Shown: positions 3,793 through 27,666 of the stretch, piece after piece
Layout: each line of letters starts with the position of its first letter
Position numbering within the stretch: position 1 is the stretch's first letter
Source: an uncultured Clostridia bacterium
Lineage (GTDB): Bacteria; Bacillota; Clostridia; Lachnospirales; Anaerotignaceae
DNA length: 64,000 nucleotides
Direction: 5' to 3'
Assembly: GCA_944378105.1 (NCBI GenBank)
Contig: CALWGC010000022.1
Location: forward strand, 96,944 to 160,943
Translations under genes and position numbers: made by a program
Notes under the pieces: generated by a model
What the model was told of the DNA's origin: nothing
Seen by the model: the letters and a program-made list of their open reading frames with translations, nothing else
Database searches by the model: none

Positions 3793-3796
3793 ACGG

Positions 3797-4285
3797 TCAC
3801 GCTCCTTCCGTGGGGGAAGTCATTTCGTCGTAATGCTCATACGTTTCAAAATACAGCCACATAATCACGGCATCTTCATGGGTGTCTTGGTAATAATTCT
3901 TGCGAAACCCTTCGGGCCGGAATCCAAACCGGGCATAAAGCCGCTGGGCCGTCAAGTTGGAGATTTTCACTTCCAAGGTAATGCCAATCATTTCCTTTTC
4001 CTTGGCCACGGCAATCATCTCTTCCATCAGCGCCGCTCCTACCCCTTGGTTACGATATTGGGGCAATACGGCCACATTGGTGATTTGGCCTTCGGTCACC
4101 ACATGCCACATCCCGGCATATCCGGCTACCTTTCCATCCACCAACGCCACCCGATAGATGGCCATGGTATTTTTGGTCAGCTCCCGTTCAAAGTCCGCCC
4201 GCGTCCAGGCAATGGCAAAACAAGTTTCCTCCACTTCCAACACATCTTCCAGATGCGCCATCGTCATGGGTACAATCTCGATCAT
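3797..4285 (-). CDS. rimI: Ribosomal-protein-alanine N-acetyltransferase (GNAT)
   Basis: 162 aa. GNAT acetyl-CoA motif QYRNQGVGAALM. Sits in the conserved position after tsaE-tsaB. Confidence 0.8.
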   Translation of the reverse strand: MIEIVPMTMAHLEDVLEVEETCFAIAWTRADFERELTKNTMAIYRVALVDGKVAGYAGMWHVVTEGQITNVAVLPQYRNQGVGAALMEEMIAVAKEKEMIGITLEVKISNLTAQRLYARFGFRPEGFRKNYYQDTHEDAVIMWLYFETYEHYDEMTSPTEGA

Positions 4286-4297
4286 CGATTTCTCCTT

Positions 4298-5014
4298 TTA
4301 TCTACCCAGTCTTTGGGCCTGTTTTTGTTTTTCTTCCAACTCCCGCTCTGCTTGGGGTTTGCGTAAATAGATGGGGGTAAATTCAGCTCCGTCTACAAAC
4401 TGGCCTCTTTTTTGCAATTCTTCTGCCAACGCCCCCACCGAGGCCGCCCGCTGGAAACAACAATTGGCCGGGGCCAGATAAAACCGATCCTCTTGTTTGA
4501 GCCGTTCTTGATACACCGGCACGCCATCGCCCACAAAAATGGTCTCCCGGCCGCTGGCCTTACAGATGGAAATCATTTCTTCCAGACTGCGGGCCGCCTG
4601 GGGCACCAGCTGGCGCAGCACGCCTTTTTCCCAACTATACGCCGCCGTATACACCTGCTGCCGTCTGGCATCCATAATGGGGCAAATGAGGCGGTTATTT
4701 TGTGCAATGTTATAGGCCAACGCATCCAGTGTGGGTACAGGGATAATGGGAATGGAAAGCCCATGGGCCAACCCCTTGGCCGTGGCCGCCCCAATGCGCA
4801 GCCCCGTAAAAGAGCCCGGCCCTTCGGCACAGGCAATATAGTCCAACTCCTCTGCCGCCGTACCCGTCCATTGTAATAACTGGTCAATCATGGGCATGAT
4901 GGTTTGGGAATGGGTCAGTTTATGATTGAGACTCACTTCCCCGCGGCAAATGCCGTCTTCCAACAACGCCGCCGAAGCCACCAAAGCGGAAGTATCCAAT
5001 GCCAATAGTTTCAT
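4298..5014 (-). CDS. tsaB: tRNA t6A37 threonylcarbamoyl-transfer protein TsaB
   Basis: ORF trimmed to MKLLALDTSALVASAALL (typical TsaB N-terminus). Its ATG overlaps the tsaE stop (ATGA at 5011-5014). Confidence 0.9.
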   Translation of the reverse strand: MKLLALDTSALVASAALLEDGICRGEVSLNHKLTHSQTIMPMIDQLLQWTGTAAEELDYIACAEGPGSFTGLRIGAATAKGLAHGLSIPIIPVPTLDALAYNIAQNNRLICPIMDARRQQVYTAAYSWEKGVLRQLVPQAARSLEEMISICKASGRETIFVGDGVPVYQERLKQEDRFYLAPANCCFQRAASVGALAEELQKRGQFVDGAEFTPIYLRKPQAERELEEKQKQAQRLGR

Positions 5015-5442
5015 TTTGTTCCCTCCTCCACTCGAATGCGGCGATAATTGTCGCCACGGCTGAAATCCTTTTCTATGGTAATCCATTTGGCTGTGGGTGG
5101 GATCAATTCTTTCACCAATTTGGCCCATTCCACCAGGCAAACGCCCTGGCCAAAGAAATAGTCTTCATATCCCGTATCATCCATTTCTTCTAAACTGCCC
5201 ACACGGTACACATCAAAATGATATAACGGCAGACGCCCTTCGTATTCATGAATGATGGTAAAGGTGGGGCTTGTGATATACGGCGTCGTTACGCCAAGCC
5301 CACGGGCAAACCCACGGGTAAACACCGTTTTTCCCACGCCCAAGTCGCCTTCCAGGCAGAAAATATCGCCAGGGCGCGCCTCTTTGGCCAACGCTTGCCC
5401 CACTTGCTCCGTTTCTTGTTCACTCCAAGTTTCAAACTCCAT
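5011..5442 (-). CDS. tsaE: tRNA t6A37 ATPase TsaE
   Basis: ORF trimmed to MEFETWSEQETEQ. P-loop is GDLGVGKTVFTRG. Contains the SPTFTI and YHFDVYR motifs typical of TsaE. Confidence 0.9.
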   Translation of the reverse strand: MEFETWSEQETEQVGQALAKEARPGDIFCLEGDLGVGKTVFTRGFARGLGVTTPYITSPTFTIIHEYEGRLPLYHFDVYRVGSLEEMDDTGYEDYFFGQGVCLVEWAKLVKELIPPTAKWITIEKDFSRGDNYRRIRVEEGTK

Positions 5443-5444
5443 GG

Positions 5445-6260
5445 TTATCTCCTTTGTGTTCTCAGTTGTTCTGCACGATATACGGTGGATTCGATCGTTT
5501 CTCCTGCGGCAATCCAAACACTGCCGTCGCCTTTGCGGTAAAGCGCCTTTCCTCCGCCACAGTAGACCACTTGTGCCACATCTTCATCCAGTACCGTTTC
5601 TCTTCCCACATGAAAAAGCACCAACTGGCCCGTTTCGTCTTCGTCGCTTTCTCCTGCCACATAATAAATCCATTGGTTTTCCGTCGAGGCAGCCAAAGAA
5701 AGCACATGCTCTGCAATGGGCGCCTTGACCCCGCCGGAACAATAATAAAAAGACGTTCCTTTTTGATAATAAATATCCTGTTTTGTTGCCGTAAAAGCAG
5801 CTTCTGTCACCTGGGTATCGATTTTCTGCTGACTTTCCAGCGCGCCTTTGCGCACGGAAAACAGATACAGCGTTCCATCCTCCGTGCGGCCCAATACGGC
5901 CGAGCCATCCTGGCAAGAACGAATGCTTTCCGGCAACAGCCCTTCCACCTGAAATTGGCTTTCGGTGCCATCTTCTGCCACCAAAAAAAGTCCGTCTGGC
6001 TGATTGCTTAAAGTATAGCCTTCTAAGCCACCCTGCGTTTGTGCCGGCTCCTCCACGGCCACCGGCTCTCCTTCCAAATCCCATTGGTACCAGGTGTCAT
6101 CGCTACAAAAATAGCCCAAGCTTTCTTCTCCCGAAAGCCCTGCCAGATACCACCCGGCCGTATTGCGCAAAGCAGCATATCCTGCCGCCAAAAGCGCCAT
6201 ACAGGCGGCCAAAATCAAACATCGTTTCCCAAAGGAACTTTTTTTCTCCTGGGTGTCCAT
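5445..6260 (-). CDS. Hypothetical membrane-anchored protein with an extracytoplasmic domain
   Basis: ORF trimmed to MDTQEKKSSFGKRCLILAACMALLAAGYA (RBS AGGGAG), giving an N-terminal signal-anchor helix. Its stop is 2 nt from the tsaE start. No family recognised. Confidence 0.6.
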   Translation of the reverse strand: MDTQEKKSSFGKRCLILAACMALLAAGYAALRNTAGWYLAGLSGEESLGYFCSDDTWYQWDLEGEPVAVEEPAQTQGGLEGYTLSNQPDGLFLVAEDGTESQFQVEGLLPESIRSCQDGSAVLGRTEDGTLYLFSVRKGALESQQKIDTQVTEAAFTATKQDIYYQKGTSFYYCSGGVKAPIAEHVLSLAASTENQWIYYVAGESDEDETGQLVLFHVGRETVLDEDVAQVVYCGGGKALYRKGDGSVWIAAGETIESTVYRAEQLRTQRR

Positions 6261-6293
6261 GTTCCAACTCCCTTTTCTTTGTGATCTCGTATC

Positions 6294-6323
6294 AGTATAC
6301 CATTTTTGGCAGATTGTTGTAAA
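6294..6323 (-). promoter_or_regulatory. Candidate sigma-A promoter of the hypothetical-tsaE-tsaB-rimI-lon operon
   Basis: On the minus strand: TTTACA, 18-nt spacer, TGgTATACT (extended -10). Lies about 35 nt upstream of the start at 6260. Confidence 0.45.
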
Positions 6324-6383
6324 CACTCATCCCAAAAGAGGCTTCCTTTCTCCATAAAAAAAAGGATGCCGGAATCACCGACA

Positions 6384-6416
6384 CCCCAAAACGGCACGCG
6401 CCACCGCCGTTTTCTT
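6384..6416 (-). terminator. Intrinsic terminator after the GntP permease gene
   Basis: Stem AAAACGGC (6388-6395) / GCCGTTTT (6406-6413), immediately downstream of the stop at 6417. A short U run follows on the minus strand. Confidence 0.5.
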
Positions 6417-7772
6417 TTAATAAAGCCCTGGCAATACACCAGAGAACATATTCAAAATCAGTACCACAATCAGCCCTGTCACACCAGCGCACAGACCACC
6501 AACGGTCCATGTCTTTAAGGTTTCGGAGAAGCTGAAACCGGAGAAACGGTTGATTACCCAGAAACCGGAGTCGTTTGGCAAAGAAAGACCAACGCTACCG
6601 CAGCAAACGGCAAGACCAACCAATACCGGAGAAGCGCCTACCGCTACGATGGTAGGAGCCACGATGGAAGAGGTGGTTACCAATGCAACCGTTGCAGAAC
6701 CTTGTGCTGCACGGAGAATCTGGCTTAACAAGAAGGCCAACAGGATCAAAGGCATGTTCAAATCGCCCATCACACCTACCAGATAATCGCCAATGCCGGA
6801 AGCATTGATGATCTGGCCAAAGCTACCGCCGGCGCCGGTAATCAAGAACACCATACCAGCCTGACCAGCGGCTTCCGTCAAAATATCTTCCAAAGGACGA
6901 GGGAAGTATTTTTTCAGTGCAAAAATAGCAACGATGACACCGATGAACAATGCCACGTTCTTATCGCCAATGAAAGCAAAGAACATGTTCACAGCTGGGT
7001 TGCTGTCGCCGATGATGGCCGTTACTACGGTACCAGCCAAGATCAACAAAATAGGAAGGAAAATCAAGCCCACTGCCAGATAGCCAGATGGTTTTGGACC
7101 ATTGTTCACTGGCTGTGCAGCTGGAGTTGCTTCTTCCAAAGCAGCTTCCACGATGCTGTTATCTTTAAAAAATTTGTTGGTGGTCAATTTGGAATAGAGC
7201 ACGCCGCCCACCAAGCTGGCAGGTAGTGCAACAATCAAAGAATAAAATACAAATGGACCAATGGGTGCATTCACGTTACCAGCTACTGCCATAGGACCTG
7301 GAGTTGGGATAACCAAGCAGTGTGCTACAATCAAACCAACGCCCAAAGCCGTTACGAAACGGGCAAAATGGATACCGGTTTTTTTGGAAAGCTGTTTGGC
7401 AATGGTCACCAAGATAACGAAAGCGGCATCAAAGTATACAGGAATGGCAACAATGACACCAGTGATGTTCATGGCGATGGGAGAGTTTTTGATGCCGACT
7501 TTTTCCAACACCAAAGAAGCAATTTCTTCCGTACCGCCTGTTTCATACAATAATTGTCCTAAAATAATACCGAGTGCAATAACAATACCAATACTTTGCA
7601 TGGTCGAGCCAAACCCTTTGGCAATTTCCGTTGGGATGGAGTTCAATGGCAAACCAGTTGCAAGACCCATCACAATGGCCACGGCCAGCAACGCAATGAA
7701 GGGATTTACTTTAAATTTGATGATCAAAAGCATCAACAGAATAATCCCTACAAGAAAAACTGCAAGTAACAT
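6417..7772 (-). CDS. GntP-family (gluconate / acid-sugar:H+) permease
   Basis: 451 aa, polytopic. N-terminus MLLAVFLVGIILLMLLIIKFKVNPFIALL and overall Gly/Ala/Val-rich pattern are typical of GntP transporters. RBS AGGAGG. Confidence 0.85.
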   Translation of the reverse strand: MLLAVFLVGIILLMLLIIKFKVNPFIALLAVAIVMGLATGLPLNSIPTEIAKGFGSTMQSIGIVIALGIILGQLLYETGGTEEIASLVLEKVGIKNSPIAMNITGVIVAIPVYFDAAFVILVTIAKQLSKKTGIHFARFVTALGVGLIVAHCLVIPTPGPMAVAGNVNAPIGPFVFYSLIVALPASLVGGVLYSKLTTNKFFKDNSIVEAALEEATPAAQPVNNGPKPSGYLAVGLIFLPILLILAGTVVTAIIGDSNPAVNMFFAFIGDKNVALFIGVIVAIFALKKYFPRPLEDILTEAAGQAGMVFLITGAGGSFGQIINASGIGDYLVGVMGDLNMPLILLAFLLSQILRAAQGSATVALVTTSSIVAPTIVAVGASPVLVGLAVCCGSVGLSLPNDSGFWVINRFSGFSFSETLKTWTVGGLCAGVTGLIVVLILNMFSGVLPGLY

Positions 7773-7988
7773 CTTTGTTCCTCCTATTCTTTTTTCTGCA
7801 CCTGCATATTCTGTGCCCCACTATCGGAAAGTATGTGTGCCCCGTCTTTTCCTTCTCTCTTGCAGCGGCGCAGTTGCAAGAAGAAGAAACCGTGTTGCTT
7901 GTATATTGGTCAGACCGGAAATACATTTTATGACATTCCATTTCTTTCCAAATCTTCCCAAACCCTTGTCTTTCCTTAGCTATCTATC

Positions 7989-8017
7989 ATGATACAAAAC
8001 ATCCAGACCTTTGTCAA
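7989..8017 (-). promoter_or_regulatory. Candidate sigma-A promoter for the GntP permease gene
   Basis: On the minus strand: TTGACA (8012-8017), 17-nt spacer, TATCAT (7989-7994). This implies a ~210-nt 5' UTR. Confidence 0.45.
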
Positions 8018-8297
8018 ATAAAAAACACACTAGAAAATTCGACTTATGTTCGTCATTTCGTTCCAAATTCATGAATGACATTCGATATAACCGTATAACG
8101 TTCCTTCTTTTCCGGCGATATTGCTTAAAAAAGCGACATTTTTTGACTAACTTTCAAACAAATTCACGTAGAAAGGTTGGGGTTTGGCGAAAAGACTTTT
8201 TTTCTGAGTTTTCCTTTTATTTTTTCTTTTTTTCGTGCAAATGATACAAAAATCACAGTCTTTTCTTGTCTATTTGCTCCAGTGTAAAACACTGGGG

Positions 8298-8332
8298 CAA
8301 CAAAATAGGCCGCCGAATTTCTTCGGCGGCCT
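8298..8332 (-). terminator. Intrinsic terminator after potD
   Basis: Stem AGGCCGCCGAA / TTCGGCGGCCT (8307-8332) with loop TTTC, then UAUUUUG on the minus strand. A second perfect 7-bp hairpin CCAGTGT-AAA-ACACTGG follows at 8279-8295. Confidence 0.7.
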
Positions 8333-8355
8333 GCCTGCCAGGGTTCCTGGATTTA

Positions 8356-9438
8356 TTATTGTGCAGCCTTCACTTTGATCCAAAGTTCTGCCAATTTTTG
8401 TTTCAACACTTCGTTGTCTTTGAAGATTTCGTCTTTTTCATAGCCGTCTCTTGGCAAATAAGCTTCGTTGTCGGCATAATAACCGCCTTCGCCGGTCATG
8501 GCATCCAACACTTCCTGGTTACTGGAAGCATAGCCTACATATTCGCTGTTGCCATAAGAAGCGTCATAGGTCAATACATAGTTGATAAATTCATGGGCTA
8601 ATTCTGGGTTTTCTGCATTGGCCGGAATCACCATGGCGTCGCTCCAAAGGTTGGTGCCTTCCATTGGCATAAAGAAGCCCATGTCTGGGTTTTCATCCAA
8701 AATCACCGCTGCATCACCGCTATATACCACGGCCAGGCTCTTGGTGCCGCTCATCATATTGTCAATGACTTCGTCGGTTACATAGGTTGGTTCCATGGTG
8801 TCGTTCAGTTCTTGCAGCCATTCATAAGCAGCCTGGATTTCTGCTTCGTCTTCGGTGTTCATGGAGTAGCCCAATGCTTTAAAGGCCATCATAAAGGAGT
8901 CGCGTTCCGAGTCATAGATATACACATCGCCTTTGTAATCGGTATTTTTCAAAATGTTCCAGCCCTGTTCTTCCAACAGTTCCAAAGGCACATTGTTCTT
9001 GTTGTATACAATGCCTACACTGCCCCAGAAATAAGGCACAGAATATTGATTGCCTGGATCATAATCCAAGTTGGTCAGGTTTTCGGCCAGATTGGACAAG
9101 TTTGGAATCTTGCTGTGATCCAATTCCATCAACATATCTTCTGCCATCAACCGTTCAATCATATAGTCGGAAGGTACCAAAACGTCGTAAGCATCGCCTG
9201 CTTGCAGTTTGGTATACATCATTTCGTTGGAATCGAAATATTCCACGATCACTTTGACACCAAATTCGTCTTCGAAGTCGGAAATTAGGTTTTCACCCAT
9301 GTATTCCCCCCAGTTATACAGCTTTAACGTATCAGAGCTGTATTTGCTTTCTGCTTCGCTTCCGCTTTCCGAAGAACTGCTGCTGCAACCGCTCAACACC
9401 AGTGCAGCCCCCAACATCAATGCAAAAATTCTTTTCAT
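8356..9438 (-). CDS. potD: Spermidine/putrescine ABC transporter substrate-binding lipoprotein
   Basis: 360 aa. Lipobox LSGC. Sequence resembles the PotD family. It is the last gene of a potA-B-C-D arrangement with overlapping stops and starts. Confidence 0.85.
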   Translation of the reverse strand: MKRIFALMLGAALVLSGCSSSSSESGSEAESKYSSDTLKLYNWGEYMGENLISDFEDEFGVKVIVEYFDSNEMMYTKLQAGDAYDVLVPSDYMIERLMAEDMLMELDHSKIPNLSNLAENLTNLDYDPGNQYSVPYFWGSVGIVYNKNNVPLELLEEQGWNILKNTDYKGDVYIYDSERDSFMMAFKALGYSMNTEDEAEIQAAYEWLQELNDTMEPTYVTDEVIDNMMSGTKSLAVVYSGDAAVILDENPDMGFFMPMEGTNLWSDAMVIPANAENPELAHEFINYVLTYDASYGNSEYVGYASSNQEVLDAMTGEGGYYADNEAYLPRDGYEKDEIFKDNEVLKQKLAELWIKVKAAQ

Positions 9439-10229
9439 TTCACCCTTTTCCTTTCTTTTAACATTGGAATAATATTGATCAGCAGCAATACCACCGTAAT
9501 GAGCAAAATCACAATGGTGGAAAGCGCGTTGATCGACGGATTGACCCGTTTACTCATGGTGTAAACGAGAATGGAAATGTTGCTGACCCCGTTACCAGTC
9601 ACAAAATAAGAGATGATAAAGTCGTCAAAACTCATGGTAAAGGCAATCAGCGCCCCGGAAATAATGCCCGGCATAATCTGCGGTACAATCACCTTTAAAA
9701 GCGCCTGCCAAGGGGTGGCCCCCAGGTCCATACAGGCGTCGGCCAAGTTGGGATCAAGGCTACGCAATTTCGGCGATACGCTTAACATCACATAAGGCGT
9801 ACAAAACATAATGTGGGCCAGCACCATGGTCAAAAACCCTTTTTTCACCCCAAGGGCACTGAAAAACATCAAAAGCCCAATGGCCGTCACAATTTCTGGG
9901 TTCATAATGGGCAAATCGTTGATGTGCTCCACCGTCGCCTTTAAAATTTTGTTGCTTTTGGAAAGGCCAATGGCCGAAATGGTGCCCACAATGGTGGAAA
10001 CCACCGTTGCAATCAAAGCCACGGCAATGGTATAGAAAACGGCATCCATCATGTCGTTACTGGAAAACATTTTTTCGTACCATTGCAGCGAAAACCCGTT
10101 TAAATGGGTCAAGGATCGGTTTCCGTTGAAGGAAAACACAATGATATACAGGATGGGAGCATAGAAAAAAGCAAATAAAACGGCCATCCAAATCTTGGAA
10201 AAAATCCGTGGTTTTTCTTTCATGCTCAC
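9435..10229 (-). CDS. potC: Spermidine/putrescine ABC transporter permease
   Basis: 264 aa polytopic protein with the ABC permease EAA-like loop (DLGATPWQALLKVIVP). Shows 4-nt overlaps with both neighbours. Confidence 0.85.
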   Translation of the reverse strand: MSMKEKPRIFSKIWMAVLFAFFYAPILYIIVFSFNGNRSLTHLNGFSLQWYEKMFSSNDMMDAVFYTIAVALIATVVSTIVGTISAIGLSKSNKILKATVEHINDLPIMNPEIVTAIGLLMFFSALGVKKGFLTMVLAHIMFCTPYVMLSVSPKLRSLDPNLADACMDLGATPWQALLKVIVPQIMPGIISGALIAFTMSFDDFIISYFVTGNGVSNISILVYTMSKRVNPSINALSTIVILLITVVLLLINIIPMLKERKRVK

Positions 10230-21733: not shown

Positions 21734-22027
21734 TCAACATTCCTCGTCGTAGTTTCTAGGCAGAGAACGCACATTTTTGTGGCTGATCCAATCGCCCTTT
21801 TTTGCGTCGCTCATCATGGCCCCAATCACCTGGCCGTATTTGATGACCTCTTCTCCGTCTTTGAGGTCCACCACAGCCACTTTGTGAAACGCCGGTACCT
21901 CTTCCCTGGCCTCTACTTCCACCTCTTGGCCTTCTTTTTGGTAAAACACCGTGTCTCCTGCATGAACATCATCCACCACTGTCACAACCTTGTCCACCGG
22001 TTGCAATAGAATTGCTCTGATCCGCAT
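21734..22027 (-). CDS. UxaA-family dehydratase, small SAF-domain subunit
   Basis: ORF trimmed to MRIRAILLQPVDKVVTVVDDVHAGDTV (RBS AAGGAGGG), a SAF-like N-terminal domain. Ends 17 nt upstream of the large subunit. Confidence 0.75.
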   Translation of the reverse strand: MRIRAILLQPVDKVVTVVDDVHAGDTVFYQKEGQEVEVEAREEVPAFHKVAVVDLKDGEEVIKYGQVIGAMMSDAKKGDWISHKNVRSLPRNYDEEC

Positions 22028-22300
22028 GGGATTTCCCTCCTTGTCTCGTCCATTCCATCGGGTGCTTGTTTCTTTCATTATAACGAAGGGACGGACGGTT
22101 TTCAAGTATTTTCGTATTATTTTTTCTGCTATATTTGTATTTCCGTTTTTTTATTACGTTTTTTCCTTCTTTTTCTCCATTGCGTATTCTTTTTACGATT
22201 AGGAAAACAAAACCGTTTGCTTAAGTTTTCAAAATCCCTTGCACTTTTCGCCTTCCTTTAGTACCATAAAAAAAAGAAAAAAAAGAAACGGAGGTTTTCC

Positions 22301-23437
22301 ATGTTATTTCACAAATACGCCCCCTTATTGCTTGTTGTCGGCTGTCTCATGAGCGGTTGTGCATCGGATGCCATTCCTTCGCCCAAAGACCGCCTTTCTG
22401 CCATAGAAAGCGGAGAAGTGACGCTGGAAGAGGCGGAAGAAAAAGGTTGGATGGATGAAGCCTTTACCAAATACTATCAAGCAGCCCATCCTTTTGCATT
22501 AAAAGTGCCCGCTGCCGCCACTTCTTATGCCTTTCCCGCTTTGGGACTGACCCTTTCTTTCTCTGAAGACTGGAGCATAGCCCAGCAAAACGGGGAAATT
22601 TGGATGTACTATACTGCTTCCGACGATGGCACCAACGCCTGCGTCTATTTCCAAGAAGGCACGCCGCCCAAAGACTTGCTTTCTATGACAGATTACGAAG
22701 ATTGGCTTGCCACCTCCACCCCCATCGGGGCCATTGGCTTTGCCCCGGCCGGACAGGAGGGCATCGATTTGCCTTATATTGAAACCATGTATACTTCTGC
22801 GCCCACATTGGCCGGACAGACCACAGACAATCGCCAAGTCTGCTATGTCTATGTAAACCCCGATAGTGCCTATGCCGATTTGTTTGCCAAACGGACCATC
22901 CTTTTTGAAACCCCAACCCAGCCCGACCAAACGGCCGCCTTTGGCTATCTGGATAGTCCACATTTGGTTACAGACCTGGGCGACTTTACGGCCCAGTCCC
23001 TCCAAGGGCAATGGTATAACGGCAATTTGTTTGCCCAAGCCGATTTGACCATGGTCAATGTCTGGGCCACCTTCTGTGGCTATTGCATCGACGAAATGCC
23101 GGCCTTGGAAGAAATCAGCCAGGAAATGCAACAAAAAGGCGCCTCCTTCCAGATTGTTGGCATCTGTATGGACGTCACCCCCGAAGGCCCTGTGGATGAA
23201 GCACAACTCAACAAAGCTCTTGCCATTGAAGAAGCCACCGGTGTCACCTATGTTTCTTTGATTCCCGATGAAACCATGCTCCAAGGCCCTGTGGGCACCA
23301 TCCAAAACCTGCCCACCACCTTTTTTGTGGACCGCCAGGGCCACATCACAGGCCAGGCCTATGCCGGGGCCAACGACAAAGAATCGTGGCAAGAAATCAT
23401 TGACGCCCATCTATCCTTGGTGGAAGGAGCGGAATAA
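22301..23437 (+). CDS. Lipoprotein with a C-terminal TlpA/redoxin-type thioredoxin fold (thiol-disulfide oxidoreductase)
   Basis: 378 aa. Lipobox LMSGC. The N-terminal ~230 aa is an unknown domain. C-terminal part has VNVWATFCGYCIDEMPALEEI (CXXC) and PTTFFVDRQG (cis-Pro loop). Confidence 0.8.
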   Translation: MLFHKYAPLLLVVGCLMSGCASDAIPSPKDRLSAIESGEVTLEEAEEKGWMDEAFTKYYQAAHPFALKVPAAATSYAFPALGLTLSFSEDWSIAQQNGEIWMYYTASDDGTNACVYFQEGTPPKDLLSMTDYEDWLATSTPIGAIGFAPAGQEGIDLPYIETMYTSAPTLAGQTTDNRQVCYVYVNPDSAYADLFAKRTILFETPTQPDQTAAFGYLDSPHLVTDLGDFTAQSLQGQWYNGNLFAQADLTMVNVWATFCGYCIDEMPALEEISQEMQQKGASFQIVGICMDVTPEGPVDEAQLNKALAIEEATGVTYVSLIPDETMLQGPVGTIQNLPTTFFVDRQGHITGQAYAGANDKESWQEIIDAHLSLVEGAE

Positions 23438-23440
23438 TTG

Positions 23441-23578
23441 ATGAAAAAAACTCAGGTATCGATTTTGCTTTTGCTCTTTGGCTGTTTTTGCCTGGGAGCA
23501 GGATGGCTGCGGGGAGAAAATAGCGTGATTTTGGCAAAAGCCATTCGCATTTGTTTGGAGTGTGTTGGCATTGGATAA
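23441..23578 (+). CDS. 45-aa single-pass membrane mini-protein with a C-terminal CXXC (CD1871A-type)
   Basis: Below the ORF-track size cutoff. The ATG is 3 nt after the tlpA-like stop. Sequence is MKKTQVSILLLLFGCFCLGAGWLRGENSVILAKAIRICLECVGIG. I recall the ...C-x-E-C-[VI]-G-I-G end as the CD1871A family signature. Confidence 0.7.
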   Translation: MKKTQVSILLLLFGCFCLGAGWLRGENSVILAKAIRICLECVGIG

Positions 23579-24422
23579 AGAAAAAAAATCGGAACGAAAA
23601 CGACTGACTATACAGCTTCTTTGGACCCTCATCACCAACGCCTTTGTGGTTGGCTTTGCCCGGGGCGCCATCTACCAAGGAAAGCTAAAAAGCGTCTGTG
23701 TACCGGGGCTAAACTGTTATTCCTGCCCCGGTGCCATCGCCAGCTGCCCCATCGGGGCCTTGCAGGCCGTCCTTGGCAGTTACGAGTTTCGGCTCCCCCT
23801 GTTTGTGACTGGGTTTTTGATCCTCGTTGGCACCATCTGTGGCCGGTTTGTCTGCGGCTTTCTTTGCCCCTTTGGGCTGGTGCAGGATTTGCTCTATCGA
23901 ATTCCCTTTCCCAAAAAGTGGCGTACCTTTCCCTGCGACCGGCCGCTGCGGTTTTTGAAATTTCTAGTTTTGGCCGTGTTTGTGGTGGCTCTGCCCCTTT
24001 TGGTGACCGACCTCATTGGCCAGGGCTATCCCTGGTTTTGTAAACTGATCTGCCCGTCCGGCACACTGATGGGCGGCATTCCTTTGGTCAGCGCCAATGA
24101 AACGTTGCAACAAAGCATTGGAGCGCTGTTTGTTTGGAAGATGGGGCTTTTGCTTTTCTTGTGTCTGTTGGGGGTTGTGCTTTGCCGCCCCTTTTGCCGC
24201 TATCTTTGCCCCCTGGGCGCCATCTATGGCTTGCTGCAACAAGCCTCTTTCTATCGGCTTTCTGTGGACCAAGATGCCTGCATCTCCTGCGGCCAGTGTG
24301 CCCGTGTTTGCCCCATGGCCTGCGAGCCCACCAAACGGCCCAACGATATGGAGTGCATCCGCTGTGGCCGCTGCAAGGCCGCCTGCCCCACAGAGGCCAT
24401 TGAGATTGGATTTCTAAAATAA
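23562..24422 (+). CDS. Polytopic membrane 4Fe-4S binding protein (NapH/NosR/MauN-like)
   Basis: 286 aa. CX3CP motifs CGFLCP, CKLICP and CRYLCP, plus CYSCPGAIASCP. Two ferredoxin motifs, CISCGQCARVCP and CIRCGRCKAACP. The start is uncertain (GTG 23562, TTG 23565 or TTG 23571) and overlaps the mini-ORF. Confidence 0.85.
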   Translation: MLALDKEKKSERKRLTIQLLWTLITNAFVVGFARGAIYQGKLKSVCVPGLNCYSCPGAIASCPIGALQAVLGSYEFRLPLFVTGFLILVGTICGRFVCGFLCPFGLVQDLLYRIPFPKKWRTFPCDRPLRFLKFLVLAVFVVALPLLVTDLIGQGYPWFCKLICPSGTLMGGIPLVSANETLQQSIGALFVWKMGLLLFLCLLGVVLCRPFCRYLCPLGAIYGLLQQASFYRLSVDQDACISCGQCARVCPMACEPTKRPNDMECIRCGRCKAACPTEAIEIGFLK

Positions 24423-24426
24423 AAAA

Positions 24427-24459
24427 AGGTTGTTCGATTGTTTCGAGCAACCTTTTTTT
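24427..24459 (+). terminator. Intrinsic terminator after the 4Fe-4S protein gene
   Basis: Stem AGGTTGTTCGA / TCGAGCAACCT with one G-U pair, followed by TTTTTTT. Confidence 0.65.
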
Positions 24460-24516
24460 GTCACCTTTTTCTCTTTTTTGCCATAGTATGACAAAAAAAG
24501 AAAAGGTGATCGCATC

Positions 24517-25785
24517 ATGCGGACAAAATGGATCCTTTCTCTAGCCGCAGCATTTTGTTTATTGTGTTTCTCCCTTTGGTTTGCCATCCCCTGGGCAGCA
24601 GATGTATCGACGAAACTTCCCGCTGTTTATGTCTGGTGGGTCATCCTTGGCATCGCTTTGCTGCCTGGTTTTTTGATGTTTGCCATGTTTTTTTCCAATG
24701 TGCAGCATCAAAAGCCGGCTTCTTACCCCATCGCATCCGACCCTGTGACCATTTTGCTGTGCGCCCATAATGAAGAAGCAGCCTTGCCTTCCTGTCTGCA
24801 ACATATTTTTGCACAGCAATATGGCGGTTCCATTTCCCTGCTTCTCATTGACAATGCTTCCACCGATCAAACCGCTGCTATTGCCAAAAAAGCGGCCGCC
24901 CAGGCCCCGCCCGGTTTTTCTGTTACCTATCTGTTCTGTCCGCAAAAAGGAAAACACTTTGCCCTCAACGAAGGCCTGCGCCATGTCAAAACCAAACTTT
25001 TTCTCACATTGGATGCCGATACGCTGTTGGAGCCAGAAGCGGTGGAACAAATCGTATCCTGCCTTTTGGCCACCGACAGCGCCTGTACGGCAGGCCATTT
25101 ATTCGTGGCCAATCCACGCCAATCCTTTGTTTCTGCCATGCAGCTTTACGACTATTGGCTCAGCATTGCTGCCGTCAAACGGTTCCAAGGTAGCTACCGT
25201 ACCACCTTGGTGGCCCAAGGCTCTTTCAGTGCCTATCGCACAGAAGCGGTCCGAGAAGTGGGCGGGTGGGATGCTTCTTTTGGAGAAGATATTGTCCTCA
25301 CCTACCGGCTCCTATCCAAAGGCTATGGCTCCACCTATGCCCCAAAGGCCGCAGCCTCCACCATCGTTCCAACCACATGGTCTTCCCTCTTTCGCCAAAG
25401 GAAACGTTGGGCCTACGGCATGCTGGAAGGCCTTTGCACAGTCCCTCTTTTACAACAGCCTTCTTGGTATAGCCGCTATTTTGTACTGGTCAATTGTCTG
25501 ATTCCTGTTTTAGACTTGGCCTATTTGACAGGTTTTTTGCCTGGTGTCGTTCTTTGGGACCTAGGCTATCCCTATTTTGTGGGGCTTTATACCTTGTTTT
25601 CTCTGCTGTTAGGCGCTCTGTTATGGACTGCGGCCTATGGGTTCCAGAAAAAATTGAACCTGCCATTTCAAAATCATGCCATCGGCTTTCTTGGTTTTTT
25701 ACTGTTTTTCCAAACCATCAGCTCCATGGCCGCCGTCAGTGGCTATCTCCAATTTTTGCTTTCCCGAAGAAACATGCACTGGTAG
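24517..25785 (+). CDS. Membrane-embedded family-2 glycosyltransferase, processive beta-polysaccharide-synthase type (PgaC / cellulose / chitin synthase-like)
   Basis: 422 aa. N- and C-terminal TM segments surround a GT-A domain with LLIDNAS, LDADT (DxD) and FRQRKRWAYG (Q-x-x-R-W). Confidence 0.85.
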   Translation: MRTKWILSLAAAFCLLCFSLWFAIPWAADVSTKLPAVYVWWVILGIALLPGFLMFAMFFSNVQHQKPASYPIASDPVTILLCAHNEEAALPSCLQHIFAQQYGGSISLLLIDNASTDQTAAIAKKAAAQAPPGFSVTYLFCPQKGKHFALNEGLRHVKTKLFLTLDADTLLEPEAVEQIVSCLLATDSACTAGHLFVANPRQSFVSAMQLYDYWLSIAAVKRFQGSYRTTLVAQGSFSAYRTEAVREVGGWDASFGEDIVLTYRLLSKGYGSTYAPKAAASTIVPTTWSSLFRQRKRWAYGMLEGLCTVPLLQQPSWYSRYFVLVNCLIPVLDLAYLTGFLPGVVLWDLGYPYFVGLYTLFSLLLGALLWTAAYGFQKKLNLPFQNHAIGFLGFLLFFQTISSMAAVSGYLQFLLSRRNMHW

Positions 25786-25929: not shown

Positions 25930-27666
25930 TTATTCTGCCACCATTTCTGTTGGTTCCGTTTCCATGCTTGGCAGAGACTGGGCTTCGCTGGCTTCTGCTT
26001 CCTGTTTGGCCCGTTCTTCCAAGGCCGCGTCGGTGGCTGCCTGGTGTCCGGTCAATTTCACCTGCGTCACCGTCACCAATCCGTCTGTGGCCCCGGCATA
26101 CCCGCTCAGTTCCACCTGGTCGCCTACTTTGGCTGTGATGATGGTCAGGTTTTCTTTGGCCTGCACTTCAAAGAGGGTTTCTTCCCCTTCCAATGTGACA
26201 AAGTAACAGGTGTTGCCGTCGATCACCACGTCATAAATGCCGCTGATGGTGCCGCTAAATTGATTTTGTTCTGCCTCCTCTGTCAAAGAAAGGCCGCTAT
26301 CATTCATCAATGCTTTATAATTGGTTTCACACTGGCTCACCGTATCGCCAATGGCCACCAACTGATACCGCTCCACATTGACCATGGCATATTTTTTCAC
26401 CAATCCCGCATCGTCTTTGAGGGAGAGGAAATAGGTGGGCTGGCCTCCCACGTTCAATAGCAGCGGGAACGTAGCCTGATAACCCAAGTTTTGCACCTGG
26501 CCTTCGGCCGAACGCATGGCAGACAATTCCTTGGCGCCGGAAACCTGATAATAATTAGTTTCCTTCGTCCGCTGGTTCATCAACACAAAGCCCACAATGG
26601 ACTCGTCCCCTGTCACAGAGGTGATGCCGGTATAGACCCAAACGTCATCGTTTAAGGCAATATAGTTATAGCCTTCTGTGGTTTGCAGACAACCCTTTTG
26701 GCTAAAAATACTGTTGAGGTACCCACCGGAAAGCAGCCCAAAATAATCGTACTGTCCAATCAGCAACGCCGCATCATAAACGCCGTCCACCCATTGGGGC
26801 ACATCGGCAATGTCATAATAGGTGTGTTCCCCCGTGACGGCATTTAACAGCACGGCTCCCTTGATGTCGCTGCCGCCAAACAGACCAATGGTCTTTTCTT
26901 CCACCGAGCAAATCCAGTAAGGCACGCCGTTGTCGTCAATTTCAAAGCTGATATTGCGGAACATAGCCGTCGGATAGCAAAAGCGCAGATACCGGTTCAA
27001 ATTGCGGCCAAAGTGCTCCGTTGGCGAAATGCGGATACCTTCTTCCAATTTCACCAGTTCCACATCCTGGGTGGTCATATCAATTTTGATATAGGCCGGA
27101 ATCCCCGTGGAACGATTGGTCAGCCATTTGATGGCACTGCTGTACTCCAATGGTGTAACGCGCACCGGTTTTCCTTGGTAGTTGATTTGGGAATAAAAAT
27201 CGCTGACTTCATATTGGCTGACCATATCGATCATACTGCCCATTTTTCTTTCTGCCAACAGCGCCGCCGTATCCTTGTCCATAATGGGGATTTGGTTAAA
27301 ATCCACCTCTTCAATGTCTTCGGCAAAACTACTGGGGGTGACGGTCAACAAGTCCTTGTAGGCCGAGGCCCGCAAGATGGGCGAAGAAAGCAGCGTCCCG
27401 CCGCCATAAAACACCACAAAAACTGCCACCACCAGTAACAGCTTTTTCCATTTTTTGATCTGTTCTCCCAGTGTAAGCCCGCGGCTGGACTCCACCATTT
27501 TTTGTATCATGGTATAGCTATTGAGCACCACAGCCACCACCAATAGCAGTACCGCAAACTGCCAAAACTCTTGGTTATGGATATTGATGGCTGGAAGCAT
27601 GGTATAAAATAACAAAAACCAAACCACAATCGTCAATCCCACGCCATAGATTGTCCTCTTTTTCAT
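25930..27666 (-). CDS. Membrane protein of unknown function with a large extracytoplasmic domain and an acidic C-terminal tail
   Basis: 578 aa. About three N-terminal TM helices, a ~400-aa soluble region, a C-terminal beta-rich segment (GTISGIYDVVIDGNTCYFVTLEGEETLFEVQAK...VELSGYAG) and a tail (EERAKQEAEASEAQSLPSMETEPTEMVAE). Codon usage is consistent with its neighbours. Confidence 0.7.
   Translation of the reverse strand: MKKRTIYGVGLTIVVWFLLFYTMLPAINIHNQEFWQFAVLLLVVAVVLNSYTMIQKMVESSRGLTLGEQIKKWKKLLLVVAVFVVFYGGGTLLSSPILRASAYKDLLTVTPSSFAEDIEEVDFNQIPIMDKDTAALLAERKMGSMIDMVSQYEVSDFYSQINYQGKPVRVTPLEYSSAIKWLTNRSTGIPAYIKIDMTTQDVELVKLEEGIRISPTEHFGRNLNRYLRFCYPTAMFRNISFEIDDNGVPYWICSVEEKTIGLFGGSDIKGAVLLNAVTGEHTYYDIADVPQWVDGVYDAALLIGQYDYFGLLSGGYLNSIFSQKGCLQTTEGYNYIALNDDVWVYTGITSVTGDESIVGFVLMNQRTKETNYYQVSGAKELSAMRSAEGQVQNLGYQATFPLLLNVGGQPTYFLSLKDDAGLVKKYAMVNVERYQLVAIGDTVSQCETNYKALMNDSGLSLTEEAEQNQFSGTISGIYDVVIDGNTCYFVTLEGEETLFEVQAKENLTIITAKVGDQVELSGYAGATDGLVTVTQVKLTGHQAATDAALEERAKQEAEASEAQSLPSMETEPTEMVAE

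Follow-up and report, generated by a model that had tools for sequence, protein, structure and literature searches.

A 64-kb stretch of DNA, hereafter the window, carries three consecutive genes that encode a thioredoxin-fold lipoprotein (ORF1), a CXXC mini-protein of the CD1871A family (mini-ORF) and a NapH-related Fe-S membrane protein (ORF3). We consider it probable that this trio forms an Fe-S relay for electrons across the membrane, by which an extracytoplasmic thioredoxin (Trx)-like protein is kept reduced. An earlier sequence-only reading of the locus had proposed such an Fe-S route for reductant, and co-occurrence, predicted topology and natural gene fusions now support it. In our best reading, the anatomy of the relay is taken from sequence prediction and we infer its chemistry.

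Organization of the three-gene locus

The features of the locus are listed in Table 1. As the sequence-only reading had stated, the three ORFs lie on the same (plus) strand, and the mini-ORF has exactly the sequence quoted there. The terminator that it had put at 24427-24459 corresponds to the stem and T-run at the end of Table 1. ORF1 is preceded by a ribosome-binding site (GGAGG, 6 nt upstream). A search of the plus strand upstream of ORF1 turned up no consensus sigma-70 promoter, and no Rfam family matched across 21900-24700.

For comparison, we surveyed 80 genome loci that contain a relative of ORF3; no two of them share a species, and all come from Clostridia or Spirochaetia. The claim that the three genes are translationally coupled was upheld, with a correction at the second junction. 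The 3-nt gap between ORF1 and the mini-ORF was found with an ATG start (a TTG start at 23438 gives 0 nt). The second junction had been described as a ~17-nt overlap; 8 nt is likelier. The most probable start of ORF3 is TTG 23571 (MDKEKKSERKR...) rather than GTG 23562, since the N-termini of homologues agree with the former (MDKRVKK, MDKKKK). With this start, ORF3 overlaps the mini-ORF stop by 8 nt, and the same overlap was present in 47/80 loci.

Table 1. Features of the three-gene unit (positions in the window)
Feature	Position	Strand	Remarks
ORF1, thioredoxin-fold lipoprotein	22301..23437	+	378 aa
ORF1 active-site CXXC, C259-G-Y-C262 in WATFCGYC	23075..23086	+	
mini-ORF, CD1871A-family CXXC protein	23441..23578	+	45 aa, one TM helix
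mini-ORF CXXC	23552-23563	+	
ORF3, 4-TM Fe-S membrane protein, NapH-like core	23571..24422	+	likely TTG start
ORF3 loop 1, C46-x5-C52-x2-C55-x6-C62 = CVPGLNCYSCPGAIASCP	23697..23747	+	predicted outside
ORF3 CX3CP motif 1, C98GFLC102P	23853..23870	+	after TM2, cytoplasmic side
ORF3 CX3CP-like motif 2, C160KLIC164P	24039..24056	+	loop 3, predicted outside
ORF3 CX3CP motif 3, C212RYLC216P	24195..24212	+	after TM4, cytoplasmic side
ORF3 ferredoxin domain, two CX2CX2CX3CP [4Fe-4S] motifs, C240-C250 + C265-C275	24279..24389	+	
Intrinsic-terminator-like hairpin + T-run, end of three-gene unit	24419..24461	+	19-pair stem

The thioredoxin-fold lipoprotein

ORF1 begins with a signal peptide and lipobox; an N-domain occupies ~aa 21-225, and a ResA/TlpA-like domain follows at aa 228-367. 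The lipobox LMSGC noted earlier is present, with Cys20, and on this basis the Trx domain is predicted to be extracytoplasmic. The assignment of a TlpA/redoxin domain was confirmed by Pfam: residues 228-367 matched AhpC-TSA (36.9 bits), Redoxin (32.7 bits) and Thioredoxin (24.7 bits), each above its cut-off. A Foldseek search gave ResA, TlpA, CcmG and Etrx2 as the closest folds (target-normalised TM-score, TMt, 0.6-0.8), and these proteins also matched in sequence. Comparison with curated NCBIfam equivalogs assigned ORF1 at the superfamily level only, as it fell into none of the named orthologue groups tested: TlpA (NF047696, 43.9 bits against a cut-off of 230), ResA (NF002854, 35.3 against 170), DsbE (TIGR00385, 46.8 against 123) and StoA (NF041202, 17.7 against 210).

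Matches to the Trx domain, and not to the N-domain, dominated the fold search. The latter is lineage-restricted, with only four full-length database homologues; it gave no Pfam match and had no homologue across the 80 loci.

The CGYC site of ORF1 is atypical. Its homologues in the cassette mostly carry W[AG]T[FW]C[GSP]PC, and their active sites are mainly CGPC, CSPC or CPPC, which are typically of the reductase type. Nearly all 55 cassette Trx homologues have a lipobox or a signal peptide (42 recognised by regular expression, the rest by eye). Relatives consisting of a rhodanese-Trx fusion (P0246) were rejected as cassette members, as they lie outside it.

The CD1871A-family mini-protein

The mini-ORF scored 55.4 bits (E 4e-15) with the NCBIfam model NF040920 (CD1871A family), for which the cut-off is 32, and its residues 8-45 span the entire 38-position model. 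The product ends in KAIRICLECVGIG, and the outward C-terminal helix finishes in ICLECVGIG. All features by which we recognised CD1871A proteins were found in it: a length of ~45-60 aa, a single TM helix and the motif ...KAxxICxECIGIG at the C-terminus. The same pattern occurs in 80/80 loci and in > 7900 database clusters. In the literature found, CD1871 appears only as a locus tag within the conjugative transposon CTn5 of C. difficile.

As to whether the mini-ORF is translated, we analysed codon-position entropy over its last 19 codons that do not overlap ORF3, using 81 sequences. The values were 0.83, 0.58 and 1.55 bits at positions 1, 2 and 3, respectively. This clear coding signature indicates that selection acts on the protein. 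The CXXC had been expected to face outward, and the charge bias agrees: N-in/C-out is predicted in 81/81 sequences. The net charge of the mini-protein is +4 in the N-flank and −1 in the C-flank, and N exceeded C in every sequence. Two other identities were considered. A lipoprotein was rejected: LFGC in the mini-protein resembles a lipobox, but only 3/81 family members have a lipobox-like motif. A RiPP precursor was dropped in view of the lack of a maturase gene, the TM-helix N-terminus and the invariant C-terminus.

The NapH-related Fe-S membrane protein

All cysteine motifs previously listed for ORF3 (CGFLCP, CKLICP, CRYLCP and two CX2CX2CX3CP) are present, and Pfam recognised two Fer4_5 and two Fer4 stretches. 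Some homologues of ORF3 also matched Fer4_18. A fourth motif, C46-x5-C52-x2-C55-x6-C62 in loop 1, had been overlooked; it is invariant in 82 sequences. Together with the two cysteines of the CX3CP in loop 3, this gives six extra invariant cysteines, and the family motif reads CVPGLNCYSCPG. Four TM segments are predicted. The N-terminus, loop 2 and the C-terminus are rich in K/R, and loops 1 and 3 are poor in K/R. Hydropathy, the positive-inside rule and the logic of the fusions described below predict that the ferredoxin domain lies inside and the six extra cysteines outside. Both termini and the Fe-S centres of NapH were reportedly assigned to the cytoplasmic side by Brondijk et al. in 2004.

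The proposed NapH/NosR/MauN architecture stood as homology of the core, but not as membership of the curated NapH/MauN families. ORF3 (residues 91-284) aligned to Escherichia coli NapH (97-278) with an hhalign probability of 98.6% (E 1e-15). The curated NapH/MauN cut-off was not reached: ORF3 scored 56.3 bits against 213 for TIGR02163 (NapH/MauN) and 49.4 against 234 for NF007013 (NapH equivalog), in both cases with a match confined to residues 187-282. CX3CP motifs 1 and 3 of ORF3 align to the first and second CX3CP of NapH, and motif 2 is an insertion relative to NapH. The loop 1 motif lies outside the aligned region and has no counterpart in the alignment with E. coli NapH; the model confidence of this loop is low (pLDDT 54-59). 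Sequence and fold searches of the PDB returned ferredoxin-domain matches only (polyferredoxins, FwdF and the delta subunit of PFOR), and no solved structure matched the membrane domain. No napG/napA, mau or nos genes were found near ORF3 in the window, and none recur in the 80 loci.

Conservation of the cassette

The mini-ORF was present in all 80 loci and lay immediately upstream of the ORF3 relative in 73 of them. In 47/80 loci a secreted Trx gene was directly upstream of the mini-ORF, and 7 further loci had one at another position. The trio is thus not confined to one lineage: it reaches, among others, Lachnospiraceae, Oscillospirales, Christensenellales, Peptostreptococcales and Treponema/Spirochaetia. 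In the remaining 26/80 loci, the Fe-S and mini-protein pair had no Trx gene within 6 kb, and therefore the pair may serve other clients instead of, or in addition to, Trx. No other neighbouring family was widely recurrent, the maximum being 13 of the 80 loci. A conserved substrate gene beside the cassette (Msr, peroxiredoxin etc.) was likewise rejected, as none recurs.

Natural fusions of the Fe-S protein

Among distant relatives we found at least 40 natural fusions (counted as cluster representatives at 50% identity) that join the Fe-S protein, one further TM helix and a Trx (Redoxin) domain. The number of TM helices between the ferredoxin domain and the Trx CXXC was odd in 30/30 parsed fusions, and positive charge precedes the helix. 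The fusions are thus predicted to put Trx on the membrane face opposite the ferredoxin domain. From the lipoboxes, the signal peptides and these helix counts, the Trx domain is predicted to be extracytoplasmic, as had been assumed at the outset. In 4/4 fusion loci examined, the upstream gene encodes a 5-TM protein that ends in a CD1871A module, and this module is also predicted to end outside in all four proteins.

In one lineage, a GltD-like NAD(P)H flavoprotein (resembling the small subunit of NADPH-GOGAT) is fused to the cytoplasmic N-terminus of the Fe-S protein. This fusion is embedded in a cassette of mini-protein, Fe-S protein and Trx; it was seen in three independent assemblies and amounts to a single 50%-identity cluster. 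Fusions between the mini-protein and ORF3 were not found: apparent N-terminal extensions (L009, L049 and others) were over-called ORFs, and P0121 proved to be a tandem duplicate.

The Fe-S and mini-protein pair could be the real unit and reduce a metal ion, a small disulfide (cystine) or an oxidant, with Trx as an optional client or as an auxiliary in the upkeep of the outward cysteines. We regard this as unlikely, though the numbers lend it something: the pair was present in 80/80 loci and Trx adjacent in 47-54/80. The membrane protein CcoG, also known as FixG, acts on Cu(II) for assembly of the cbb3 oxidase; this related cupric reductase, compared by Pfam domains, combines similar Fer4_5 modules with cytoplasmic [4Fe-4S] clusters (Fer4). 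We know, however, of no Trx or CXXC mini-protein partner of CcoG. ccdA is not invariably adjacent to its Trx clients either. NapH-like modules in general work with many different partners (PMC8238504), but no alternative partner gene recurs beside the pair, and the Fe-S module is fused specifically to Trx domains in the cluster representatives counted above.

A candidate pathway for electrons

The universal mini-ORF, the 8-nt overlap, the adjacent Trx gene and the Fe-S/Trx fusions argue that the three proteins are functionally coupled. In the relay that we favour, a low-potential donor in the cytoplasm would reduce the two [4Fe-4S] clusters in the C-terminal ferredoxin domain of ORF3. The donor would probably be reduced ferredoxin in most lineages and the fused GltD-like NAD(P)H flavoprotein in one. 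From there, electrons would pass via the NapH-like 4-TM core and the two CX3CP motifs on its cytoplasmic side to a cysteine-rich site at the outer face, made up of the six invariant cysteines of ORF3 and the CXXC of the mini-protein. This site would turn one-electron Fe-S chemistry into two-electron thiol/disulfide exchange. The reduced dithiol would then be handed on to the Trx lipoprotein at its CXXC, and this protein would in turn reduce substrates at the cell surface.

Both ferredoxin as the donor and the reducing direction are what we infer; the direction is suggested by the fused GltD-like module, the CGPC/CSPC/CPPC sites and the ResA/TlpA/CcmG/Etrx2 folds. The evidence for physical coupling is silent on direction, and electrons might instead enter the cell by way of the mini-protein and then ORF3, to be taken up by an acceptor in the cytoplasm. 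The Trx lipoprotein would then oxidise secreted proteins, as in DsbA/DsbB-like disulfide formation, in quinone-less anaerobes. The CGYC of ORF1 is similar to CGHC, the more oxidising site of PDI, and CxYC or CxWC occurs in a small number of homologues. We nevertheless find this improbable, as most cassette Trx proteins combine reductase-typical sites with a ResA/TlpA fold and the fused GltD-like module fits an NAD(P)H donor. Moreover, transfer from thiols (~−120 to −270 mV) to low-potential [4Fe-4S] clusters or NAD(P)+ would be uphill.

Relation to known systems

To our knowledge, ResA, TlpA, CcmG and Etrx2 all depend on a supply of reductant and are all served by CcdA/DsbD. As far as is known, all characterised proteins of the ResA/TlpA/Etrx type use CcdA or DsbD, which is consistent with PMC3914529 and PMC3322552. 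An ordinary CcdA encoded elsewhere might by the same token reduce the Trx lipoprotein, with adjacency reflecting co-regulation (for example, in an oxidative-stress regulon), but this is very improbable given that translational coupling is kept across two phyla, that covalent fusions set Trx opposite the ferredoxin domain across the membrane and, as weak evidence, that the window encodes no CcdA-like protein. On the last point, a crude motif and Pfam check agreed with the earlier statement that ccdA and dsbD are absent from the 64-kb window: no ORF in it showed the PC-motif pattern of CcdA, and neither ORF1, the mini-ORF nor ORF3 matched the families of the DsbD transmembrane domain (PF02683, PF13386), which has cysteines in TM1 and TM4. 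This absence says little about the remaining genome.

The DsbD/CcdA/ScsB systems (CcdA-ResA of Bacillus; CcdA-Etrx-MsrAB2 of S. pneumoniae) have the role that we propose for the trio, namely transmembrane delivery of cytoplasmic reductant to an extracytoplasmic CXXC protein of ResA/TlpA fold, and there too the transporter gene often adjoins that of the client. The trio has no homology to DsbD/CcdA, however, and would be a functional analogue built from unrelated parts. DsbD proteins use cysteine pairs only and obtain electrons from cytoplasmic thioredoxin, whereas the trio combines two ferredoxin-type [4Fe-4S] sites and three CX3CP motifs with a four-cysteine loop and a separate CXXC mini-subunit.

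The core of ORF3 is homologous to that of NapH, MauN, NosR and RdhC (PceC), which fall into Pfam Fer4_5 (PF12801); ORF3 and NapH have in common the TM helices, the two cytoplasm-side CX3CP motifs and the C-terminal 2×[4Fe-4S] domain. Modules of the NapH/NosR/RdhC type have been proposed to be modular transmembrane electron conduits (PMC8238504; PMC5928378), and the role of the CX3CP motifs is enigmatic even in these proteins (PMC5928378). ORF3 differs from the NapH type in that it comes without NapG, NosZ or a flavinylated partner, has the six extra outward cysteines and is accompanied by the obligatory mini-protein. Its partner is a thiol oxidoreductase, and not a metallo- or flavo-reductase as for NapH-type proteins; its donor is probably not quinol.

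The logic of one-electron Fe-S chemistry leading to disulfide reduction, with transfer to a thioredoxin-type protein, would, by analogy, be that of ferredoxin:thioredoxin reductase (FTR) and of the heterodisulfide reductase subunit HdrB (CCG). Unlike the membrane protein ORF3, however, FTR and HdrB are soluble enzymes of the cytoplasm or plastid, and neither matched ORF3 in the PDB sequence and fold searches.

In the literature searched, we found no description of such a system and no mention of the family. The trio may well be the first transmembrane route outside the DsbD type that supplies reductant to extracytoplasmic thiol-disulfide oxidoreductases. It would consist of a NapH-derived Fe-S protein with an obligatory CXXC micro-subunit, be driven by ferredoxin or NAD(P)H in an FTR-like manner, occur widely among spirochaetes and the Clostridia of gut and rumen, and sometimes be mobile.

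Implications

As far as we know, DsbD/CcdA/ScsB, fed by cytoplasmic thioredoxin, is the sole family of transmembrane reductant carriers in envelope thiol-redox biology. If the proposed relay operates, this picture would have to be revised to include a second and unrelated Fe-S solution tied to ferredoxin or NAD(P)H. The relay would provide functions for the > 7900 clusters of a micro-protein family that gene callers routinely miss and for the very many proteins annotated merely as "4Fe-4S binding protein". The CX3CP motifs common to NapH, NosR and RdhC would acquire a concrete role. The natural Fe-S/Trx fusions provide ready single-polypeptide constructs for biochemistry. Finally, the relay would explain how strict anaerobes with a ferredoxin-centred metabolism keep their surface proteins reduced, for example after exposure to oxygen in the gut.

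Conservation of the three-gene cassette

The three plus-strand ORFs lie where the sequence-only reading had placed them, and the mini-ORF has the sequence that it quoted (see the table). A word-indexed search with ORF3 returned 8000 of 8000 scored candidates at E ≤ 1e-5. When 1.84 billion cluster representatives were searched exhaustively, 473 matched at E ≤ 1e-30 and 2734 at E ≤ 1e-10, and a genome scan yielded at least 598 loci with ORF3 relatives. The best matches of the word-indexed search were 55-62% identical and came from different Clostridia families. We fetched 80 loci with an ORF3 relative, one species each; their sources included Lachnospiraceae (Dorea, Blautia, Roseburia, Mediterraneibacter, Oribacterium, Lachnoanaerobaculum and others), Oscillospirales (Acutalibacter, Dysosmobacter, Angelakisella, Butyricicoccus and others), Christensenellales, Peptostreptococcales (Peptostreptococcus, Aminicella) and five Treponema/Spirochaetia genomes. 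All 80 carried a same-strand CD1871A-type ORF, which was directly upstream in 73. In 54 loci there was a homologue of the thioredoxin-like (Trx) domain of ORF1: in 47 its gene immediately precedes the mini-ORF, and in 7 it sits at another place in the locus. In the other 26, none was found within 6 kb. The co-occurrence seen in the window thus extends beyond this lineage to each of these groups. No other neighbour family recurred widely in the 80 loci; the commonest reached 13 and 10 loci, with a RelA/SpoT-domain protein and an ABC ATPase among them. The module is therefore self-contained and lacks a linked substrate.

Features of the window and of related loci
Feature	Location	Strand	Remarks
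123-aa ORF	window 21734-22105	-	no Pfam match; 7-nt overlap with start of altronate-dehydratase-like gene
ORF1	window 22301-23437	+	378 aa; GGAGG ribosome-binding site 6 nt before start
ORF1 N-domain	window 22361-22975	+	aa 21-225, ~200 aa; no match in Pfam search
mini-ORF	window 23441-23578	+	45 aa; NF040920
ORF3/mini-ORF junction	window 23562-23578	+	ATTGGATAA; TTG 23571 embedded in invariant Ile-Gly codons ending mini-ORF
Strong terminator-like hairpin	window 24419-24461	+	after ORF3
578-aa protein	window 25930-27666	-	predicted TM segments; no Pfam match at E ≤ 1e-5
5-TM partner genes	L086 1822-2670; L087 3164-3997; L089 4187-4996; L090 92-898		directly upstream of Fe-S/Trx fusion gene
L088 cassette	3106-6447 (JGI metagenome 3300033148)		order mini-protein, P0313, Trx lipoprotein

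Judged by its number, the locus CD1871A, from which the family takes its name, falls within CTn5, a conjugative transposon of C. difficile 630 (CD1845-CD1878a; PMC3158075), and CD18710 is given as a conjugative-transposon gene in a CodY study (PMC12772354), so the module may be mobile. The trio of Peptoclostridium acidaminophilum carries generic PGAP labels only (TlpA family, CD1871A family, 4Fe-4S binding protein); this copy (L085) resides on an 809-kb megaplasmid and adjoins an IS256 transposase. The cassette is rearranged in the Lachnoanaerobaculum loci L067, L072 and L074 (about 6001-9620), where the order is Fe-S protein, HAMP/HisKA histidine kinase, mini-ORF, a protein of 250 aa that has no Pfam match, and Trx lipoprotein. 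This arrangement may point to two-component regulation in that genus. A rhodanese-Trx fusion at L082 (4380-6259), kin to the ORF1 Trx domain, was rejected as a cassette component. It sits in an oxidative-stress setting, beside an Rrf2 regulator and desulfoferrodoxin.

The neighbours in the window are unrelated to the cassette: MatE, aminotransferase, PdxA and altronate dehydratase genes upstream on the other strand, GT2 glycosyltransferase and MecA genes downstream. The 123-aa ORF may be a split N-terminal domain of the altronate-dehydratase-like gene. An Rfam search at the three-gene unit gave no element.

The mini-ORF and its coupling to ORF3

The mini-ORF is a genuine member of the CD1871A family (NCBIfam NF040920; 55.4 bits, cut-off 32). 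This family counts over 7900 clusters at 90% identity, with lengths of 48-60 aa in nearly all of them. Across 81 sequences, using the last 19 codons without ORF3 overlap, codon-position entropy was 0.83, 0.58 and 1.55 bits for positions 1, 2 and 3. Conserved residues were spread over all synonymous codons (four for Gly, four for Ala, AAA/AAG 39/38 for Lys). This pattern is a signature of protein-level selection and bears out the view of the mini-ORF as a real coding sequence. We rejected the mini-protein as a lipoprotein: the lipobox-like LFGC of the window protein is kept in only 3 of 81.

The mechanical start of ORF3 is GTG 23562. The true start is likely TTG 23571, which we prefer because it gives a homologue-like N-terminus (MDKEKKSERKR...; homologues begin e.g. 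MDKRVKK or MDKKKK), follows GGAG by 10 nt and makes ORF3 overlap the mini-ORF stop codon by 8 nt (TTGGATAA). Of 80 related loci, 47 share this 8-nt overlap and 51 use TTG as the start codon. At the Trx stop and mini-ORF start of related loci, a 4-nt overlap was the most frequent arrangement. The mini-ORF/ORF3 junction is an unusually fixed point of translational coupling.

The Trx lipoprotein

The hydrophobic N-terminus of ORF1 closes in the lipobox LMSGC (Cys20). Residues 228-367 pass the AhpC-TSA, Redoxin and Thioredoxin cut-offs of Pfam and contain the active-site motif WATFCGYC. By sequence and predicted fold, the closest solved structures are ResA, TlpA, CcmG/DsbE and pneumococcal Etrx2; ORF1 fell below the cut-off of every named NCBIfam orthologue group checked (TlpA, ResA, DsbE, StoA). 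Its N-domain is confined to a handful of close relatives, with only 4 full-length ones among 5.8 billion clusters, and is modelled by AlphaFold2 as a mixed alpha/beta fold (pLDDT about 60-90). N-domains of comparable length occur in further long Trx proteins of the cassette (L005, L006, L041, L054, L059, L045), with no detectable relation to that of ORF1. Among the Trx homologues of the cassette, those from Clostridia have lipoboxes and those from Treponema have type-I signal peptides.

ORF3 is a relative of NapH with cysteines predicted to face outward

ORF3 ends at 24422. The position given in the sequence-only reading stands, but its anatomy required revision: besides the shifted start, a fourth cysteine motif, C46-x5-C52-x2-C55-x6-C62 (CVPGLNCYSCPGAxxSCP), had been overlooked, and this motif is invariant across 82 aligned homologues. 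Residues 91-284 are homologous to residues 97-278 of E. coli NapH (hhalign probability 98.6%, E 1e-15, 25% identity), the aligned region covering TM2 with CX3CP, TM3, TM4 with CX3CP and two [4Fe-4S] motifs. The four TM segments and two CX3CP motifs form a shared module, in which the motifs are without assigned function (PMC5928378). Relative to NapH, CKLICP in loop 3 is an insertion, and the alignment does not reach the four-cysteine loop 1. ORF3 scored below the curated NapH/MauN threshold (56 versus 213 bits), and PDB sequence and fold searches gave no solved-structure match for its membrane part. The AlphaFold2 model (pLDDT 77, pTM 0.78) has low confidence in the Cys-rich loop 1. ORF3-like proteins of 430-500 aa without a Redoxin domain also occur (P0258, P0260, P0261, P0265, P0267, P0270, P0271, P0273); in P0258 and P0260, the two sequences inspected, the C-terminal extension is hydrophobic, multi-TM and without Pfam match. 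The CX3CP/TM unit is internally duplicated in P0002, P0011 and P0014.

Topology was assigned by simple hydropathy and charge analysis (positive-inside rule). ORF3 has four TM segments, with K+R counts of 6 in the N-terminus, 8 in loop 2, 10 in the C-terminal domain, 3 in loop 1 and 1 in loop 3. The ferredoxin domain and the two CX3CP motifs are thus predicted to be cytoplasmic, and the six extra invariant cysteines (four in loop 1, two in loop 3) to face outward. The NapH topology that Brondijk et al. reportedly determined by experiment in 2004 agrees with this prediction. The flanks of the mini-protein have mean net charges of +4 (N) and -1 (C), the N flank being the more positive in 81 of 81 family members; this bias places the C-terminal CXXC helix outside, as had been proposed from the window protein.

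Gene fusions

We regard the gene fusions found among database sequences as the most informative new evidence. Many ORF3 relatives at 42-48% identity span 430-820 aa, and 40 of 50 long representatives have one or two AhpC-TSA/Redoxin domains at the C-terminus, with sites of the form WxTWCxxC. These fusions keep all ORF3 cysteine motifs. In 30 of 30 parsable fusions, an odd number of TM helices (one in 29, three in 1) separates the Trx CXXC from the ferredoxin domain, with net positive charge before the separating helix. The Fe-S entry domain must therefore lie across the membrane from the Trx domain.

In four of four loci (L086, L087, L089, L090), the gene immediately upstream of the fusion encodes a protein of 268-282 aa with five predicted TM helices and no match in a Pfam search. 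The last 37 residues of these partners are a CD1871A module (...KAxxIC[TS]ECIG[LI]G-stop; NF040920 28-42 bits), and their charge pattern predicts N-in, C-out. In L088, the Fe-S membrane protein (P0313) has at its N-terminus a module like GltD, the NADPH-glutamate-synthase small subunit (Fer4_20 + Pyr_redox_2). This fusion was seen in three independent assemblies. It is compatible with the N-terminus of the Fe-S protein lying in the cytoplasm and suggests NAD(P)H as an electron source in the L088 lineage.

Proposed mechanism and relation to known systems

The comparative evidence strongly supports both a joint function of the three proteins, which is very probable, and a system that spans the membrane. 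From the reductase-type active sites, the ResA/TlpA fold, the fusion to an NAD(P)H module and the thermodynamics of low-potential clusters versus disulfides, we infer that electrons flow in the reducing direction. In most lineages the donor would probably be ferredoxin, without a linked partner gene. The six outward cysteines of ORF3 and the CXXC of the mini-protein would constitute an outward site turning electron transfer into dithiol/disulfide exchange, a conversion for which FTR and Hdr offer an analogy. The ORF3 cysteines could instead hold an external Fe-S cluster. We favour thiol relays, since we know of no machinery for inserting a cluster into an external membrane-protein loop in a monoderm bacterium.

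In its proposed working the cassette is like the DsbD/CcdA-Trx pairs, but it shares no homology with them. The NapH/NosR/RdhC modules, to which it is related, were proposed by Méheust et al. (PMC8238504) to be modular transmembrane conduits for flavinylated partners; NapH-like proteins were not linked there to thioredoxin-like proteins or CD1871A. Our literature searches found no description of the cassette. Given this and its relatedness to NapH, we class it as a variant, apparently a NapH-like conduit whose output is thiol-based and which has a micro-subunit. On evidence that is computational throughout, there is a substantial chance that the cassette represents a pathway of a genuinely new class for supplying reductant to the envelope.
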